Position numbers and translations under genes: made by a program. A stretch of 7,983 bases of DNA from a virus (lineage: Duplodnaviria > Heunggongvirae > Uroviricota > Caudoviricetes): the IMG/VR virus record IMGVR_UViG_2529293249_000010; one strand, written 5' to 3'. This document shows, piece by piece, positions 1 through 7,983 of this stretch. The stretch's first letter is position 1. Every line of letters starts with the position of its first letter. Under the pieces are notes generated by a model. That model was not told where the DNA came from. It saw only the letters and a list, made by a program, of their open reading frames with translations, and searched no databases.

Positions 1-438
1 TCAAACGTCGCCAATCGCAGGAAAGACGTCTCTTTCAAGAGAGCGCCAGATATCTTCCGCATAGTCCTCTGTCACACTGGCTTTCTTCACATTCCACCAA
101 CGTTCAGCTACGAGTTGGAAAGTGTTGGTTTTGGCTTCCAGCGAACTGCGCAATTGTTCTTGCTGATGTTCCTGCGGATCGATCTGTTTAGCCAGTAGTG
201 AGCGGGACTCTGCACGGTAGTTTCTGGCATCGGCAAGGGTAACTGACGGGTAGGAGCCTATGCTCTTCTTTGCTCGTTTCTTGGTGACAGGGCGAATGTA
301 GCGAAACTGCCAGATTTTACTCCCGCTGGATTTAATGAGTAGCTCAAGGCCATCGCCATCATAGAGAACGTAGTCCGCCTCCTTGGGTTTGGCTGATTCT
401 ATTTCTTTAACGGATAGAGGTTTGGTTTGTCTTGCCAT
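1..438 (-). CDS. int: P4-type tyrosine integrase, N-terminal 145 aa only (gene continues beyond the window start)
   Basis: ORF open to the window edge, ATG at 438-436. N-terminus (LSVKEIESAKPKEADYVLYDGDGLELLIKSSGSKIWQFRY...SIGSYPSVTLADAR) has the signature of the arm-binding domain of P4/IntB-family integrases. Catalytic domain not visible in the window. Confidence 0.88.
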   Translation of the reverse strand: MARQTKPLSVKEIESAKPKEADYVLYDGDGLELLIKSSGSKIWQFRYIRPVTKKRAKKSIGSYPSVTLADARNYRAESRSLLAKQIDPQEHQQEQLRSSLEAKTNTFQLVAERWWNVKKASVTEDYAEDIWRSLERDVFPAIGDV

Positions 439-456
439 TGCCGGGTTTCCATAGTT

Positions 457-510
457 TTAGGCACCTCAAAAAACAATAAAGCTTTATGAGGTGCCTAACA
501 AGGTGCCTAA
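457..510 (-). promoter_or_regulatory. Candidate int promoter overlapped by a perfect 12-bp inverted repeat plus a third direct copy; possible Int operator / att-arm sites
   Basis: TTAGGCACCTCA (457-468) and its exact reverse complement TGAGGTGCCTAA (487-498) are separated by an 18-bp A/T-rich spacer; a third copy AGGTGCCTAA lies at 501-510. On the minus strand TTGTTA (496-501) - 17 bp - TATTGT (473-478) gives a sigma70-like promoter about 30 nt upstream of the int ATG. P4 int is reported to be autoregulated. Confidence 0.45.
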
Positions 511-563
511 AAGGATCGGATTTAATTAGTTTTCTTCGGACTTCGCGGGACAAATTGAGGGCA

Positions 564-597
564 CAAAAAAGCCCGCAGGGCTTGCGCCGTGCGGGCT
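564..597 (-). terminator. Putative rho-independent terminator (minus-strand orientation) between crr and int
   Basis: Stem AGCCCGCA (570-577) / TGCGGGCT (590-597) with a 12-nt loop; plus-strand A6 (565-570) gives a U-run immediately 3' of the stem on the minus-strand transcript. Confidence 0.4.
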
Positions 598-798
598 CTT
601 AGGACTTCATCGGATGACTCTGGTAATCACCGATGGAGAATTTTGGTGGGCTGGCGGAGTTTGAATAAATATTATATTGCTTTGATTTTTAACGATTTTG
701 TTTAATTCAGTTTTTGTGCGTATACCTAATTGTATACCAATGGCTGTAAGTTAATGTGAAATTAAAGCGCATTTTTACTTGGATTGATGCTATATCGT

Positions 799-1105
799 AC
801 AGGAAAAAAATTTTTTTTCGAAAGAACTGTTCACACTGTTCACCTTTCTTTTTTCTCCTTTTATTTCAGTATGATAGGTGGTGAATAATGGGTGAAGGGT
901 GAACATTCGATTCTTCACCTCCGGCATTCTGCTGGTGTGACTCATACCGGTGATTAATCCCCCGTACTGAAAATCACACAGGGAGAAAAAAGTTTTTTTT
1001 GATTTGATTGTTCACACTGTTCACCTTTCGTTTTTCTCTTTTAATTTCAGTGTGATAACGGGTGAATATACGGTGAAGGGTGAACAGTGGATTGTTCACC
1101 TTCGG
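799..1105. repeat. crr: crr (cis replication region): two ~125-bp direct repeats (about 799-924 and 978-1105, period ~181 bp), each with alpha-binding type-I iterons
   Basis: Near-identical units. Iterons TGTTCACA/TGTTCACC at 828-835, 837-844 and 1009-1016, 1018-1025; inverted GGTGAA(CA) copies at 881-905 and 1062-1087; TTCTTCACC at 911-919 and TGTTCACC at 1093-1100. Each unit is preceded by an A/T homopolymer run. The same octamer recurs in the ori cluster at 5834-5938. Confidence 0.85.
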
Positions 1106-1160: not shown

Positions 1161-3494
1161 TCAGGTTGTCGCAGGGTCGTCACATTTTGGCAGCCAGTCG
1201 CCGTAGCTTTCCTCTTTCAGCGTCAGGTTGGTCTGTATCCCCTGTTTGGTATGGCGCTTCTCGTAATTCAGTCCGTATTCCTTCAGCATCACCGGCAGCC
1301 CCAACCCGAACATTTTCAGACTGAGTACATTCCGGTAGCCGTTTGCCTCCATGTAGGCCAGATAGGCGTGATAGAGGTATTTACGGTAATTACGCGGGAT
1401 GATACTGGCGTTCCCCATATACATGCCGCTGGTCTGCGGCAGGGTTTCCAGATAGCCGATAAAATCAAACGTCGGGTCGGCATCCCGTTTGATGTTCAGC
1501 GCCTCGTCTGAGTTCTGCTGGGACTGAAGCAGTGACCGGGCGAGCATCGGGTCGCTGAATTTCTGCATCAGGTGACGCACGATGACCGCCAGCTCGCGGG
1601 TGATTTTGTCCTTAAGCTGCGGGTCGCGCTCCTGCGGGGCTATCTGTTCCGGGAAGTGAATAATCACCCGCCGGCGTGACACGCCGCCGCTGCGGTCGGT
1701 GAAGCGCATCGGGTTATTGTTCACGGCCAGAATTACCGCCGGGATATGCGTGGAGTATGCATCCCGGTATTTCGGGTCAACGGACACCGCATCGCCGCCG
1801 GTGATGGCCTTGAGTCCGGCACCGTCGCCGCTCCATTTTTCCTGGTCCGGCAGGCGTATCAGTGAGAAGCCAGTTAACGCGGCACGTTCACGCGGGGATT
1901 CCAGCGTCTCAATGGTGGCCGACGTGGCGTTATCCTCCCCGGCCAGCAGGGTGGCTATTTCGGCCATGATACTTTTGCCGCTGCCGCCGGGACCGGTCAC
2001 CTCCAGAAAGAGCTGCCAGTCGTAGCGGTTTGCCAGCACCATAAACAGTGCGGCCAGAATTACGTCGCGTTTTTCCGCACGACCACCGGCAGCACGGTCA
2101 AGCCAGCGCCAGAACGCGGGGGCGTGGGTTTCCAGCGTTTCCCCTTCCACCGGCGGGGTGAAATCCACATCGCACAGGGTACGCATCCAGTGTGACGGAC
2201 TGTGCGGGTGGAACGTGCCGTTCTGCGTGTCGAGCACGCCGTTACGAAAGCCAATCAGGCGGCGGGAGGGGGCTTCCTGCTGCGGAATAATCAGCTTCAG
2301 GGTGTCCACCACGGAGGCCACCTTCCCGGAGGAGAACGGCGCACGCAGACGCTGAAACAGCCCGGCCACATCCCGGGCAAAGTCCTGTGGCGGCAGCACC
2401 TTCCAGACACCATTTTCATAGCGGGACAGAAGCTGGCCGTTGGCATCGACCGCGAGCGCCTCGCCGTAATGCTCATAGATACGCATGGCCTTTTCGCTGG
2501 TACTCATGGCGGAAAACTCTGCTTCGCTCATGGTGTCGAACGGGCTTTCAGCCGGTGGCCGGATGGCATCATAAATGGCCTTACGGGTGGCCTCCCCGCC
2601 GTACTGCGTGAAGGCATCATTCCAGTCACCGAAGACCGGCGGCAGGGCAACAACACCTTCACACGCATCTGCGGCTGCGGCGGCTTTTTTCTGGCCGTCA
2701 CCGCTGAGGTCACGGTCTGCGGCAAGGACAATCTGACAGGCCGGATGCTTCTGCCGGGCAAGGCTGGCCAGAGAAAGGAGGTTCACGGAAGAAAGCGCCA
2801 CCATCACCGTTTCACCGGTCAGGTGATGTACGGTAAGTGCGGTCGCGTATCCCTCCGCTATCCACAGACGTTTTCCGGCCTGATTCTGTCCTTCAAGGGT
2901 GTGACAGGTGCCCCTGACCTGTCCGCCTTTCAGGGTGCGCTTACGGCCGTCAGCACTGATTAACTGAAGGTTAACCAGTTCGCCGCTGTCGTCATACAGT
3001 GGCACCACAAGGTCACCGGCACGCCAGCTCACGCCACCGGCTCTGTGTGTGCCGGTCAGCATCCGGCATTCCCGGCCGGGAAAGCCCTTGCGGGTCAGGT
3101 AGGCGTTACCGGTTCCGGGACGGGTTTTTGCCATCAGGGTTTGTGCCAGTGCGGCGGCGTTCTTCCGGGCAGCGTCTGTTTCAGCACCGGCGGCGGCCGT
3201 CACTGCCGGGTCAGCCGGGGGCAGGCTGCCGGTCACGGCAGCCACCTTTGCGGCCGCGTCGGACGGAGAGACACCAAACACCTTTTCAACCAGTTTCAGG
3301 CCGTCACCGGCACCACACTGATTGCAGTACCAGGTGCCGCGCCCCTCCCTGTCATCAAAACGGAAGCGGTCACTCCCGCCACAGACCGGACAGGGCTGAT
3401 GACGGTTTTTCAGCACCTGAATCCCCAGCGCCGGGAGAATACGCGGCCAGTGGCCGAGCGCATGGCTGACGGTGGCGGTTACGTTCATTTTCAT
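1161..3494 (-). CDS. alpha: Alpha: bifunctional DNA primase / helicase with C-terminal origin-binding domain (777 aa)
   Basis: 777-aa ORF, ATG at 3494 with GAAGGAG Shine-Dalgarno 8 nt upstream. N-terminal zinc ribbon CPVCGG...YCNQCG (residues 35-60); primase EGYATA motif (residues 214-219, nt 2838-2855); Walker A GPGGSGKS (nt 1971-1994). The iterons it should bind are present at crr and ori. Confidence 0.95.
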   Translation of the reverse strand: MKMNVTATVSHALGHWPRILPALGIQVLKNRHQPCPVCGGSDRFRFDDREGRGTWYCNQCGAGDGLKLVEKVFGVSPSDAAAKVAAVTGSLPPADPAVTAAAGAETDAARKNAAALAQTLMAKTRPGTGNAYLTRKGFPGRECRMLTGTHRAGGVSWRAGDLVVPLYDDSGELVNLQLISADGRKRTLKGGQVRGTCHTLEGQNQAGKRLWIAEGYATALTVHHLTGETVMVALSSVNLLSLASLARQKHPACQIVLAADRDLSGDGQKKAAAAADACEGVVALPPVFGDWNDAFTQYGGEATRKAIYDAIRPPAESPFDTMSEAEFSAMSTSEKAMRIYEHYGEALAVDANGQLLSRYENGVWKVLPPQDFARDVAGLFQRLRAPFSSGKVASVVDTLKLIIPQQEAPSRRLIGFRNGVLDTQNGTFHPHSPSHWMRTLCDVDFTPPVEGETLETHAPAFWRWLDRAAGGRAEKRDVILAALFMVLANRYDWQLFLEVTGPGGSGKSIMAEIATLLAGEDNATSATIETLESPRERAALTGFSLIRLPDQEKWSGDGAGLKAITGGDAVSVDPKYRDAYSTHIPAVILAVNNNPMRFTDRSGGVSRRRVIIHFPEQIAPQERDPQLKDKITRELAVIVRHLMQKFSDPMLARSLLQSQQNSDEALNIKRDADPTFDFIGYLETLPQTSGMYMGNASIIPRNYRKYLYHAYLAYMEANGYRNVLSLKMFGLGLPVMLKEYGLNYEKRHTKQGIQTNLTLKEESYGDWLPKCDDPATT

Positions 3495-3896: not shown

Positions 3897-3936
3897 CGTC
3901 TCCTGAAGACGTGCGTATCCCTGCGCGAATACGCAC
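3897..3936. other. Two adjacent hairpins in the 135-bp orf151-orf106 spacer (possible attenuator, processing site or antisense terminator)
   Basis: CGTCT (3897-3901) / AGACG (3907-3911) with a 5-nt loop; GTGCGTAT (3911-3918) / ATACGCAC (3929-3936) with a 10-nt loop. On the plus strand the second stem is followed by ATTTAATTTTT (3937-3947). This is the only sizeable non-coding gap in the otherwise coupled left operon. Confidence 0.4.
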
Positions 3937-3964
3937 ATTTAATTTTTCGGGTGTCGTTTTTTAA

Positions 3965-4420
3965 TTACAGATAATTGCGGTAACTGTTATCCGGGGTGAT
4001 TTCCGGGTCAGGCTCCGTGCGGGGAATTTCCCGCCATTCCCGCGCCACCGGTGCCGCCCGGCTGACCGGAACAGGGTCCTGCGGGTAAATATCCAGATAT
4101 TTCTCCCGCCATTTCTGTAATTCCGGGTCTCCGGCCATTTCTTTCAGTACCGCATGCCGGTTTACGGGGCTGCGTTTGAACAGGTCAGGACGGTCACAGG
4201 TAAATTCCCGCAGAAAACGCCCCAGCGGGATGTCTGTGGTGCGCCCGTCGGCGAGGATACGCACAAGGATACTGAATTTACGGCGGTACGGGTTCCAGAC
4301 AATTTCCGGGCAGCGGTACGGCATTTCCCACGGAATACCGTCTTCCAGAATGCCGACCACGGCCACATCGGGAAAACCGGCAGAACGGTAAATCTCACCG
4401 GGCTGGGGAAAATCAAACAT
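3965..4420 (-). CDS. 151-aa conserved hypothetical protein of the left operon (position and length of P4 orf151); function unknown
   Basis: ATG at 4420-4418; the upstream eps stop TGA (4415-4413) lies 2 nt inside this gene (ATGTTTGA), suggesting translational coupling. TAA stop at 3967-3965. Confidence 0.82.
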   Translation of the reverse strand: MFDFPQPGEIYRSAGFPDVAVVGILEDGIPWEMPYRCPEIVWNPYRRKFSILVRILADGRTTDIPLGRFLREFTCDRPDLFKRSPVNRHAVLKEMAGDPELQKWREKYLDIYPQDPVPVSRAAPVAREWREIPRTEPDPEITPDNSYRNYL

Positions 4421-4890: not shown

Positions 4891-5292
4891 AAGGCAACCT
4901 CCGATAACAGCGTAAATGACGCTATCGCCGGAGTTTCCACGCTCGATGGCGATAGCCCAGACGGGGGTGGAAATACCGGCGTTATCGGAAACCGGCCAGC
5001 CCGGAGGCTGCCCCGCCTGAGCTACCATTGACTCTGCGGTATAATGAGCGGACGCGGGCAGAATGCACGGAGTGCCATTTGCTCGACTGACCACACACCA
5101 CACCATAATCTGGCGCTCTGTGGCGTTGATTGCGACACAAAAAAAGACGCATGGCGCGTCATATGTCGCCGATAACATACTCGGGTTTCCACGCCCGGCT
5201 GCCGATTTTGCGGCAGCGGAAAAACTATATCCGCAAATGCCGGAAAAAGGCAAGCCAGAAAAAGGAAGTTTTTGCAGAACAGGCATCATCAT
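4693..5292 (-). CDS. eta: Eta (about 197-199 aa), long ORF beginning upstream of PLE and ending as kil; translated from PLL transcripts
   Basis: Same frame as kil, open back to ATGATGATG (5292-5284), giving 199/198/197 aa. The vis stop TGA (5291-5289) is embedded in the triple ATG. The frame continues upstream to an ATG at 5337 (214 aa) that lies inside vis. It runs through the whole immunity leader, so it can only be translated from PLL read-through RNA. Confidence 0.55.
4899..4945 (-). promoter_or_regulatory. seqC: target of CI RNA in the left-operon leader, abutting the kil ribosome-binding site
   Basis: The transcript-strand sequence carries GCGUGGAAAC...GUUAUCGG, as does seqA; both blocks are complementary to the seqB region (4966-4988). 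Position is immediately 5' of the kil Shine-Dalgarno. Confidence 0.5.
4950..5020 (-). ncRNA. cI: CI immunity RNA (seqB region); boundaries approximate
   Basis: The plus strand at 4966-4988 reads GTGGAAATACCGGCGTTATCGG, so the minus-strand transcript carries CCGAUAAC...UUUCCAC, complementary to the GUGGAAAC and GUUAUCGG blocks of seqA and seqC. The region is GC-rich with several internal inverted repeats (for example CCGG...CCGG). Exact processed ends cannot be read from sequence. Confidence 0.5.
5165..5204 (-). promoter_or_regulatory. seqA: CI RNA target at about +13 to +52 of the PLE transcript
   Basis: The transcript-strand sequence CGGCAGCCGGGCGUGGAAACCCGAGUAUGUUAUCGGCGAC shares the GUGGAAAC and GUUAUCGG blocks with seqC. 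Confidence 0.5.
5224..5253 (-). promoter_or_regulatory. PLE, sigma70-type promoter of the left operon / immunity transcript
   Basis: On the minus strand TTGCCT (5253-5248) - 18-bp spacer - TATAGT (5229-5224); predicted start near 5217, just upstream of seqA and about 35 bp downstream of the vis stop. Confidence 0.5.
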
Positions 5293-6105: not shown

Positions 6106-6840
6106 ATGTCTGACAACACCATCCCTGAATATCTGCAATCCGCGCTGGCACAACTGGAAAAGGCCAGAGCCGCCCATCTTGAGAACGCCCGTCTGATGGA
6201 TGAGACCGTCACGGCCATTGAACGGGCAGAGCAGGAAAAAAATGCGCTGGCGCAGGCCGACGGAAACGACGCTGACGACTGGCGCACGGCCTTTCGTGCA
6301 GCCGGTGGTGTCCTGAGCGACGAGCTGAAACAGCGCCACATTGAGCGCGTGGCACGCCGGGAGCTGGTACAGGAATATGACAATCTGGCCGTGGTGCTGA
6401 ATTTTGAACGCGAACGCCTGAAAGGGGCGTGTGACAGCACGGCCACCGCCTACCGGAAGGCACATCATCACCTGCTGAGTCTGTATGCAGAGCATGAGCT
6501 GGAACACGCCCTGAATGAAACCTGTGAGGCGCTTGTCCGGGCAATGCATCTGAGCATTCTGGTACAGGAAAATCCGCTCGCCAACACCACCGGCCATCAG
6601 GGCTACGTCGCACCGGAAAAGGCTGTCATGCAGCAGGTGAAATCATCGCTGGAACAGAAAATTAAACAGATGCAAATCAGCCTCACCGGCGAGCCGGTTC
6701 TCCGGCTGACCGGACTGTCAGCGGCAACACTTCCTCACATGGATTATGAGGTGGCAGGCACACCGGCACAGCGCAAGGTGTGGCAGGACAAAATAGACCA
6801 GCAGGGAGCAGTGCTTAAGGCCAGAGGACTGCTGTCATGA
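6106..6840 (+). CDS. sid: Sid: external scaffolding / capsid size-determination protein (244 aa)
   Basis: 244-aa ORF with a strong Shine-Dalgarno; predicted to be highly alpha-helical and charged. Length and position (first gene of the Psid operon, upstream of delta and psu) match P4 Sid. Confidence 0.93.
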   Translation: MSDNTIPEYLQSALAQLEKARAAHLENARLMDETVTAIERAEQEKNALAQADGNDADDWRTAFRAAGGVLSDELKQRHIERVARRELVQEYDNLAVVLNFERERLKGACDSTATAYRKAHHHLLSLYAEHELEHALNETCEALVRAMHLSILVQENPLANTTGHQGYVAPEKAVMQQVKSSLEQKIKQMQISLTGEPVLRLTGLSAATLPHMDYEVAGTPAQRKVWQDKIDQQGAVLKARGLLS

Positions 6841-7337
6841 TTTACTGCCCGTCGTGTGGACATGTTGCTCACACCCGCCGCGCACATTTCATGGACGATG
6901 GCACCAAGATAATGATTGCACAGTGCCGGAATATTTATTGCTCTGCGACATTTGAAGCGAGTGAAAGCTTTTTCTCTGACAGTAAAGATTCAGGAATGGA
7001 ATACATTTCAGGCAAACAGAGATACCGCGATTCACTGACGTCAGCCTCCGGCAGTATGAAACGCCCGAAAAGAATGCTTGTTACCGGATATTGTTGTCGG
7101 AGATGTAAAGGCCTTGCACTGTCAAGAACATCGCGGCGTCTGTCTCAGGAAGTCACCGAGCGTTTTTATGTGTGCACGGATCCGGGCTGTGGTCTGGTGT
7201 TTAAAACGCTTCAGACCATCACCCGCTTCATTGTCCGCCCGGTCACGCCGGACGAACTGGCAGAACGCCTGCATGAAAAACAGGAACTGCCGCCAGTACG
7301 CTTAAAAACACAATCATATTCGCTGCGTCTGGAATGA
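6837..7337 (+). CDS. delta: Delta: late-gene transcriptional activator, tandem Ogr-type zinc-finger protein (166 aa)
   Basis: ATG overlaps the sid stop (ATGA at 6837-6840). Two Ogr-like modules, each with C-x2-C ... C-x4-C: CPSCG...CRNIYC and CRRCKG...CTDPGC. Confidence 0.93.
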   Translation: MIYCPSCGHVAHTRRAHFMDDGTKIMIAQCRNIYCSATFEASESFFSDSKDSGMEYISGKQRYRDSLTSASGSMKRPKRMLVTGYCCRRCKGLALSRTSRRLSQEVTERFYVCTDPGCGLVFKTLQTITRFIVRPVTPDELAERLHEKQELPPVRLKTQSYSLRLE

Positions 7338-7410: not shown

Positions 7411-7983
7411 ATGGAGAGCACAGCCTTACAGCAGGCCTTTGACACCTGTCAGAATAACAAAGCAGCATGGCTGCAACGCAAAAATGAGCTGGCTGCGGCC
7501 GAACAGGAATATCTGCGGCTTCTGTCCGGGGAAGGCAGAAACGTCAGTCGCCTGGACGAATTACGCAATATTATCGAAGTCAGAAAATGGCAGGTGAATC
7601 AGGCCGCCGGTCGTTATATTCGTTCGCATGAAGCCGTTCAGCACATCAGCATCCGCGACCGGCTGAATGATTTTATGCAGCAGCACGGCACAGCACTGGC
7701 GGCGGCACTGGCACCGGAGCTGATGGGATACAGTGAGCTGACGGCCATTGCCCGAAACTGTGCCATACAGCGTGCCACAGATGCCCTGCGTGAAGCCCTT
7801 CTGTCCTGGCTTGCGAAGGGGGAAAAAATTAATTATTCCGCACAGGATAGTGACATTTTAACGACCATCGGATTCAGGCCTGACGCGGCTTCGGTGGATG
7901 ACAGCCGTGAAAAATTCACCCCTGCGCAGAACATGATTTTTTCGCGTAAAAGTGCGCAACTGGAATCACATCAGTCTGTGTAA
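7411..7983 (+). CDS. psu: Psu: polarity suppression protein (Rho antagonist / capsid decoration), 190 aa
   Basis: 190-aa ORF with a purine-rich ribosome-binding site (AAGAGA, 7400-7405); TAA stop is the last three bases of the window. Length and position after delta match P4 Psu. Confidence 0.92.
   Translation: MESTALQQAFDTCQNNKAAWLQRKNELAAAEQEYLRLLSGEGRNVSRLDELRNIIEVRKWQVNQAAGRYIRSHEAVQHISIRDRLNDFMQQHGTALAAALAPELMGYSELTAIARNCAIQRATDALREALLSWLAKGEKINYSAQDSDILTTIGFRPDAASVDDSREKFTPAQNMIFSRKSAQLESHQSV

Follow-up and report, generated by a model that had tools for sequence, protein, structure and literature searches.

Repeats over the start of a truncated P4-family integrase gene as probable arm-type sites at a tandem-island junction in ssrA

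The repeats at the start of int in the stretch of viral DNA analysed here (7,983 nucleotides, the whole of which is referred to as the window) are most probably a P-arm cluster of Int-binding sites lying over the int promoter. This P arm would belong to the attL of a resident island which has decayed through an IS3 insertion and which adjoins, within ssrA, the attR of a P4-like satellite. A probability of about 0.8 is assigned to this reading. A sequence-only reading had favoured a circular or linear phage-plasmid permutation, in which int and crr belong to one element, and had named a tandem-island junction as the alternative. The permutation is contradicted by the int gene, which is a 145-aa fragment cut by IS3 and derived from another element, and by the differing motifs of the two att arms. 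The alternative is the correct one, as is seen from the same arm mismatch, from the shared core and from the identical layout in the E. coli genome DETEC-E601.

In the proposed mechanism, the three copies of AGGTGCCTAA would form the int-proximal P-arm cluster of arm-type sites for an ssrA-targeting integrase of the P4 family, and the Arm-DNA-bind_3 domain of this Int would bind them during the assembly of the recombination complex. Because sites 2 and 3 cover the candidate -35 element and site 1 covers the predicted start, bound Int would also shut off its own promoter, as is reported for P4 Int. As for the order of events, the int gene of the old resident island would have been cut to 145 aa by IS3, and a P4-like satellite would later have integrated into ssrA between the remnant and the tmRNA gene. 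The right end of the satellite (crr, the GTATACC P' arm and the core) would now abut the P arm of the remnant, with one core copy common to both.

The window is filled by a satellite of the P4 type, with the foreign integrase gene fragment at its left end. P4 (X51522) matches positions 805–1200 with 93.7% identity, over its annotated crr, alpha terminator and alpha gene. The segment at 805–1105 (plus strand) consists of two 120-bp direct repeats (805–924 and 986–1105) with iterons of the TGTTCACC type, and by its match to the annotated P4 crr (93.7%) it is identified as the cis replication region of the P4-like satellite. The proximity of int and crr described in the sequence-only reading is confirmed; 367 bp separate the int start (438) from crr (805), the distance given there having been 340 bp. 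The terminator of the alpha gene was found at 1127–1144 by the terminator scan, and the alpha primase-helicase gene itself (777 aa) occupies 1161–3494 on the minus strand, as indicated by the list of open reading frames, the P4 match and the annotations in relatives. The list also holds one ORF of 106 aa. Three ORFs on the plus strand (6106–6840, 6837–7337 and 7411–7983) are annotated in relatives as Sid, an ogr/Delta-like zinc-finger protein and the polarity suppression protein, respectively, and an AlpA-family protein is also encoded by the satellite. Rfam matches above the gathering score are located at 4945–5230 on the minus strand, namely C4 antisense RNA (4945–5032), isrK (5140–5217) and c4-a1b1 targets (5178–5230). 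We take these to be the P4-type immunity RNA and its targets, and the system appears to be intact in the satellite.

With regard to the repeats, TTAGGCACCTCA (457–468) and TGAGGTGCCTAA (487–498) are perfect reverse complements of 12 bp, and a third copy is present at 501–510, exactly as had been noted earlier. The inverted pair is extended by the repeat finder to 16 nt at 94% complementarity. The 10-mer AGGTGCCTAA has exactly three exact copies in the 7983-base window, at 457–466 (minus strand), 489–498 (plus strand) and 501–510 (plus strand), with a total span of 54 bp, and all its other matches in the window require 2 mismatches. The chance expectation for an exact 10-mer on both strands is about 0.015 matches (2 × 7983/4^10), and the occurrence of three exact copies inside 54 bp cannot be attributed to chance. 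The two direct copies are spaced by 12 bp, the inverted copy is 18 nt from the ATG of int, and 132 bp separate the tandem pair from the core. Three arm-type Int sites are predicted accordingly by position. Site 1 (TTAGGCACCTCA, 457–468, minus strand) is inverted with respect to the other two, covers the predicted transcription start and is the counterpart of the P4 repeat at 3915–3926. Site 2 (TGAGGTGCCTAA, 487–498, plus strand) overlaps the candidate -35 element, and so does site 3 (CAAGGTGCCTAA, 499–510, plus strand), which is located one 12-bp period past site 2. Among 51 IMG/VR loci that were found via the tandem pair, the inverted copy is present at -28/-29 from that pair in all 51, and the core follows about 155 bp further on in 43.

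The gene that these repeats overlie is a fragment. The int ORF runs on the minus strand from 438 to 1 and, a point overlooked in the sequence-only reading, has only 145 aa, with its stop at bases 1–3; this fragment, int', represents the N-terminal part of an ssrA-specific tyrosine integrase of the P4 family (class A, see below). It contains a complete Arm-DNA-bind_3 domain (PF13356, residues 8–95, E = 7e-22) and 38 of the 96 positions of Phage_int_M, and the catalytic domain is absent. Judged from this domain content, int' is dead as a recombinase while its arm-binding domain is whole. Over the 145 aa, its identity is 77% with IntA of K-12, 51% with the Int that the PK6 satellite itself encodes and 38% with P4 Int.

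The TGA stop of int' is supplied by bases 1–3 of the window (TCA), which are assigned to the last three bases of an IS3 terminal inverted repeat. Three bases are weak evidence by themselves, and the argument therefore rests on the identical junction in relatives. In NCTC9088 and DETEC-E601 the sequence reads ...GGGTAAGATCA followed directly by AACGTCGCC, with an annotated IS3 set against the same int base, and in genomes with an intact int the match to the window begins only at base 4, with the reading GCTAACGTCGCC. Compared with these relatives, int' is seen to end at an IS3 terminus and is identified as the remnant of a resident island, not as the satellite's own int. The same truncated allele is found in E. 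coli NCTC9088, TUM1887, H15 and DETEC-E601.

The att core is located at 643–665 (minus strand). It is a 23-bp copy of the ssrA 3' end, reading TGGTGG-GCTGGCGG and then AGTTTGAA, and ssrA itself reads GAGTTGAACCC at the core. The boundaries follow from the matches of positions 1–1200 in E. coli (1,707 genomes, 2,048 matching places). Many of the matches listed are of the attL type, with int beside ssrA, and span base 1 or 4 to 665, several of them overlapping an annotated ssrA. A further 953 genomes contain most of the window, and most of the attR-type matches listed for these start at 639–647, usually at 643. With the attL-type matches running up to 665 and most of the listed attR-type ones beginning at about 643, the core is placed between these two positions. 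All 2,048 matches are chromosomal, and none is on a plasmid.

The expectation of an att core between int and crr was thus borne out for the larger interval of 440–780, while the core lies outside the 440–600 segment in which the finding had been framed. The suggestion that it derives from a tRNA 3' end (leuX or others) did not hold, since the core is the 3' end of ssrA; neither a whole tRNA gene nor a whole tmRNA gene was detected in the window by ARAGORN, and the leuX core of P4, tried as a tRNA-type candidate, is absent. The block GCTGGCGG (650–657) is present in most of the att copies read, the attR of PK6 keeping only CTGGCGG, and it is likely to be the crossover segment, as far as can be told from these copies.

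The core of the window (644–658) is without the A that encodes U357 of tmRNA, which is the U of the G3–U pair in the acceptor stem. The same base is missing from the attR of CP4-57 in K-12, and in NCTC9088 the real ssrA gene has the U357 deletion. The exact defective ssrA junction (U357 lost) is found in 4 of 5,428 E. coli records, and the intact form in 4,452. Excision of CP4-57 is known to delete U357, which removes the acceptor-stem G–U pair and inactivates tmRNA (PMC10107115), and the same loss of tmRNA upon excision is described for CP4So in Shewanella (PMC5148205).

The arrangement in complete genomes agrees with two elements. In DETEC-E601 the order is IS3, the 145-aa int', att, crr-alpha...psu, a retron, the satellite's own int, ssrA and smpB. 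E47 and Z1323HEC0423 are further tandem cases that share the junction, and at the far end of the satellite they have, as does DETEC-E601, another core copy together with ssrA and the satellite's own int. From these genomes we infer that the satellite of the window is likewise accompanied by its own int and ssrA, outside the window. The closest satellite, that of PK6, is an ordinary single prophage, with 99.4% identity to the window past 643; ssrA is followed there by the prophage's own int, the cargo, psu ... alpha, crr and attR, which puts int and crr at opposite ends. In NCTC9088, ssrA without U357 is followed by a class-A arm and then by int' interrupted by IS3, and this is the site that would be expected either after excision of the satellite or before its integration. 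In the light of these layouts, the core at 643–665 is considered to be at once the attR core of the satellite and the attL core of the remnant island, and the arrangement to be an ordinary tandem-island junction in the chromosome, of a kind already known, and no free phage genome.

The att arms on the two sides of the core may be compared with those of P4, in which 'attP arm sequence repeats' of 12 nt are annotated (X51522). One of these is inverted at the int start (3915–3926), two are in tandem 15 nt further on with a 12-bp period (3942–3953 and 3954–3965), the core is 112 bp past this pair, and two more tandem copies (4151–4174) are located 54 bp beyond the core. The window has the same plan, with one inverted and two tandem repeats by int, the core, and two tandem repeats of 12-bp period past the core. 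The latter constitute the P' arm of the satellite, in which two predicted arm-type sites, GTATACCT and GTATACCA, are located at 720–739 (plus strand), 12 bp apart and 55 bp past the core. Their motif is GTATACC, and it differs from the AGGTGCCTAA of the P arm at 457–510. This mismatch indicates that the junction is a hybrid, in which the two arms serve different integrases. The GTATACC motif is present beside the satellite's own int in PK6, Z1323HEC0423 and E47, as 2+2 inverted copies.

To what extent the arm motif follows the integrase is seen from a survey of 80 loci in the genomes of many enterobacterial genera, which comprise 50 loci of class A, 26 of class K and 4 that are degraded or truncated. 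In class A, the Int of which is at least 92% identical to the fragment in the window, AGGCACCT is present in all 50 loci, with three copies in 48 and two copies in 2. In class K, which is CP4-57-like and has an Int 76–79% identical to the fragment, AGGCCCA is present in all 26 loci, with three copies in 25. No locus of the 80 combines the Int of one class with the site motif of the other. The consensus sequences of the two classes agree across the rest of the P arm; the alignment with K-12 shows hardly any difference from the window in the P arm between 511 and the core, and all three copies switch jointly to TAGGCCCA in the integrases of the CP4-57 type. Among 51 distinct class-A sequences, the whole stretch from the -35 element to the ATG is highly conserved and the repeats are not singled out. 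Since column conservation does not discriminate, it is the linked switch between classes A and K that provides the informative signal. In three class-A loci (L072 and L106, Photorhabdus; L145, Klebsiella) one 12-bp tandem unit is lost and the inverted pair is kept, and the third repeat copy may therefore be dispensable.

The motif is identical on both arms in four of five lineages, and in the fifth, CP4-57, the P' and P copies differ at one position. In P4 (leuX) the P arm has TTGGGGGCA three times and the P' arm TGCCCCC twice. The other four lineages occupy ssrA. CP4-57 of K-12 (class K) has TAGGCCCA/TGGGCCTA three times on the P arm, with TTGGTCCCA and TTGGTCCTA on the P' arm. Class A, to which the int' of the window belongs, has TAGGCACCT/AGGTGCCTA three times on the P arm, and its P' arm was found in two intact elements only: in one IMG/VR contig (L023) the core is followed after 48 nt by AGGTGCCTATATAGGTGCCTAA, and in the Klebsiella prophage record Kp4865-2 (L145) it is followed after about 55 nt by TGGTGCCTATTTAGGTGCCTAA. 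The satellites of PK6, E47 and Z1323HEC0423 have GGTATAC in 2+2 inverted copies on the P arm and GTATACCT and GTATACCA (720–739 in the window) on the P' arm. The satellite of DETEC-E601 has the 22-mer GTGTACCTAAACGTGTACCAAT on the P' arm and includes it on the P arm, yet it adjoins the same AGGTGCCTAA arm.

Searches for further class-A P' arms yielded little. The exact-pattern scan of IMG/VR returned only L023; the gapped pattern gave 6 matches in IMG/VR, of which L023 alone is real, the other five being chance matches inside coding DNA. A Megablast search of E. coli genomes with the P' arm of L023 gave one unrelated transposase match only. The island of Z0117EC0098 was tried as a source of attR and was rejected, its far end having disappeared through IS-mediated deletions.

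Because the motif switches with the arm-binding domain of Int and occurs on both att arms, the repeats are best read, from these comparisons, as arm-type Int sites. A reading as core-type sites is rejected, the distance from the core (133–186 bp) being too large. The earlier proposal that they are an Int operator or core-type Int sites is therefore retained in its first part, sites for Int over the int promoter being the best explanation, and is abandoned in its second. No description of the arm sites of this integrase class was found in the literature searched.

A candidate sigma-70 promoter for int is located at 473–501 on the minus strand, with a -35 element TTGTTA (496–501), a 17-nt spacer and a -10 element TATTGT (473–478). 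It has 8 of 12 consensus matches, and the promoter scan of the window reported nothing at the threshold of 9/12. At the homologous position of intA in K-12, TTGATA-17-TATTGT has 9 of 12 matches and was reported by the scanner, and the consensus of the surveyed loci retains both hexamers; the proposal of the promoter is based on this homologous match and on the conservation. In P4 the scanner reported TTGAAA-18-CATAAT, with the -10 element over the tandem arm repeats. The view that the repeat covers a candidate int promoter is consistent with these results, since the predicted sites overlap both the conserved candidate -35 element (496–501) and the predicted start, the latter through site 1. 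For P4, PMC7286903 (citing Pierson and Kahn 1987 and Piazzolla et al. 2006) mentions that Int represses its own promoter, and also that the excisionase Vis represses the same promoter. The discussion in the same paper refers to the KplE1 model (Panis et al. 2010) and to IntI of PAI I536, in which Int-binding sites lie over the -35 element and the start of int in attL and autorepression is exerted by Int and excisionase. KplE1 and PAI I536 have other integrases and other sites than the window, and autorepression in class A is thus suggested by analogy.

An intrinsic terminator, AAGAGCCCGCACGGCGCAAGCCCUGCGGGCUUUUUU, was found by the terminator scan at 566–600 (minus strand), in the P arm of the island. 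The fold of 555–645 (minus strand) has a free energy of -37.6 kcal/mol and a z-score of -5.9, and the same terminator hairpin is present downstream of ssrA in K-12, NCTC9088 and PK6. In a true attL, this terminator would end the transcription of ssrA and would keep read-through away from the int promoter. A second stable hairpin, CAUCGGUGAUUACCAGAGUCAUCCGAUG, is located at 607–634 (minus strand) between the ssrA 3' end and the terminator and is also found in K-12; it might take part in the processing of the tmRNA 3' trailer. Three short boxes, CGGATTT (517–523), TCGGA (536–540) and CGGA (611–614), are invariant in the P-arm alignment of the window, CP4-57, the PK6 satellite and P4, despite the differing arm-site motifs, and TCTTCGGACTTC and TCTTAGGACTTC (repeats at 533–544 and 597–608) flank the terminator. 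The boxes and the flanking repeats may be sites for an excisionase (Vis/AlpA) or for a host factor.

Three other explanations need to be weighed against the arm-site reading. The window could represent the excised circular or linear phage-plasmid form of a single P4-like element, in which case both int and crr would come from that element and 439–800 would be its functional attP. The order int-att-crr-alpha is indeed that of the P4 genome, and a core copy is present between int and crr. However, the int breaks off at an IS3 terminus after 145 aa, a different int is found beside ssrA in the close relatives of the satellite, and all 2,048 of the 2,048 E. coli matches to 1–1200 are chromosomal, with no plasmid among them. 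Moreover, the two arms differ, whereas P4, CP4-57, class A and the two satellite classes have the same or a closely related motif on both. Such a form is considered to be extremely improbable.

It is somewhat less improbable, though still quite unlikely, that the repeats are operators for a protein other than Int, such as an excisionase of the Vis/AlpA type or a repressor. In P4, Vis reportedly binds between int and the core (Cali and colleagues, 2004), and the satellite encodes an AlpA-family protein. The int promoter of P4 is repressed by Vis as well as by Int, as stated in PMC7286903. Against this stand the tandem copies of the motif past the core, a typical feature of arm-type Int sites, the coincidence of the positions with the annotated attP arm repeats of P4, and the fact that the motif tracks the Int class while the remaining P arm is common to classes A and K; the CGGATTT and TCGGA boxes at 517–540 are better candidates for binding by an excisionase or a host factor. 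That the inverted repeat acts as a hairpin in the leader RNA of int, through attenuation, stability or translation control, instead of as a DNA site, is very unlikely. The fold of 436–520 (minus strand) does have a free energy of -28.7 kcal/mol with a z-score of -4.2 and a perfect 12-bp stem, the pairing is maintained in class K by changes on both arms, and short 5' transcripts and post-transcriptional control of P4 int are said to have been described (Piazzolla and colleagues, 2006). The predicted -10 element (473–478), however, puts the transcription start inside the downstream arm of the hairpin, and both arms would be present only in read-through RNA. There is no U-tract after the stem, the inverted pair in P4 has only 9 bp in common, and the third copy, the 12-bp phasing and the P' copies are left unexplained.

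With the repeats taken as arm-type sites, the window may be set beside known systems. Like the window, the attP/int region of P4 (X51522) has a P4-family Int with an N-terminal arm domain, a promoter-like site under the arm repeats, a core from the 3' end of a small RNA gene, and, about 55 bp past the core, a tandem pair of repeats, after which come crr and alpha. The core of P4 derives from leuX and that of the window from ssrA, and the motifs are TTGGGGGCA and TTAGGCACCT, respectively. Unlike P4, the window has an intrinsic terminator in the P arm, arms which appear to serve different integrases, and an int which is a truncated remnant. CP4-57 of K-12 shares with the window the insertion site in ssrA, the three-site layout, the position of the candidate promoter and the P arm including the terminator. 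It differs in its sites (TAGGCCCA/TGGGCCTA as against TAGGCACCT/AGGTGCCTA), in its intact IntA and in that no satellite adjoins it in K-12. In the tandem islands at the tmRNA gene of DETEC-E601, E47 and Z1323HEC0423, one core is likewise common to two neighbouring elements, of which one contributes its int end. Nothing essential differs from these tandems, the window being a pairing of a P4-like satellite with an IS3-decayed island. Tandem arrays at the tmRNA gene were reportedly described by Williams in 2003 under the title 'Traffic at the tmRNA gene'.

These results imply no new mechanism. For annotation, they mean that a P4-like sequence cannot be taken for an excised phage form simply because int adjoins crr, and that the repeat motifs on both att arms should be compared as a test. 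The pairing of integrases with arm sites (TTGGGGGCA in P4, TAGGCCCA in CP4-57, TAGGCACCT in class A, and GGTATAC and GGTACAC in the two satellite classes) could be of use for predicting the end on which each integrase acts in crowded tRNA or tmRNA hotspots. There is also a faint chance that int', which keeps its start codon, its complete arm domain and its candidate promoter, is retained as a stand-alone DNA-binding protein on the AGGTGCCTAA sites beside the attR of the satellite, where it might affect the excision of the neighbouring satellite or block incoming class-A islands. If so, it would be a form of site immunity against class-A islands.

Two minor observations concern the relatives. 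In the IMG/VR contig L023 (1–2600), a unit of about 2.4 kb has a core with a class-A P' arm and, separated from these by about 0.9 kb, a 413-aa int followed by a class-A P arm and another core; the unit is flanked by the start of another int on one side and by a 396-aa ORF on the other, which suggests a multi-element array. In the relatives of the satellite, the slot between psu/cos and the satellite's own int, which lies outside the window, has a different cargo in each: a metallophosphoesterase and a HAD hydrolase in L003 (14608–17063), a SIR2 protein in L001 (22306–23664), a retron St85 pair in L146, that is, DETEC-E601 (20297–22209), and hypothetical genes in L004 (17365–18473). It appears to be a place where P4-like satellites carry variable cargo or defence genes.
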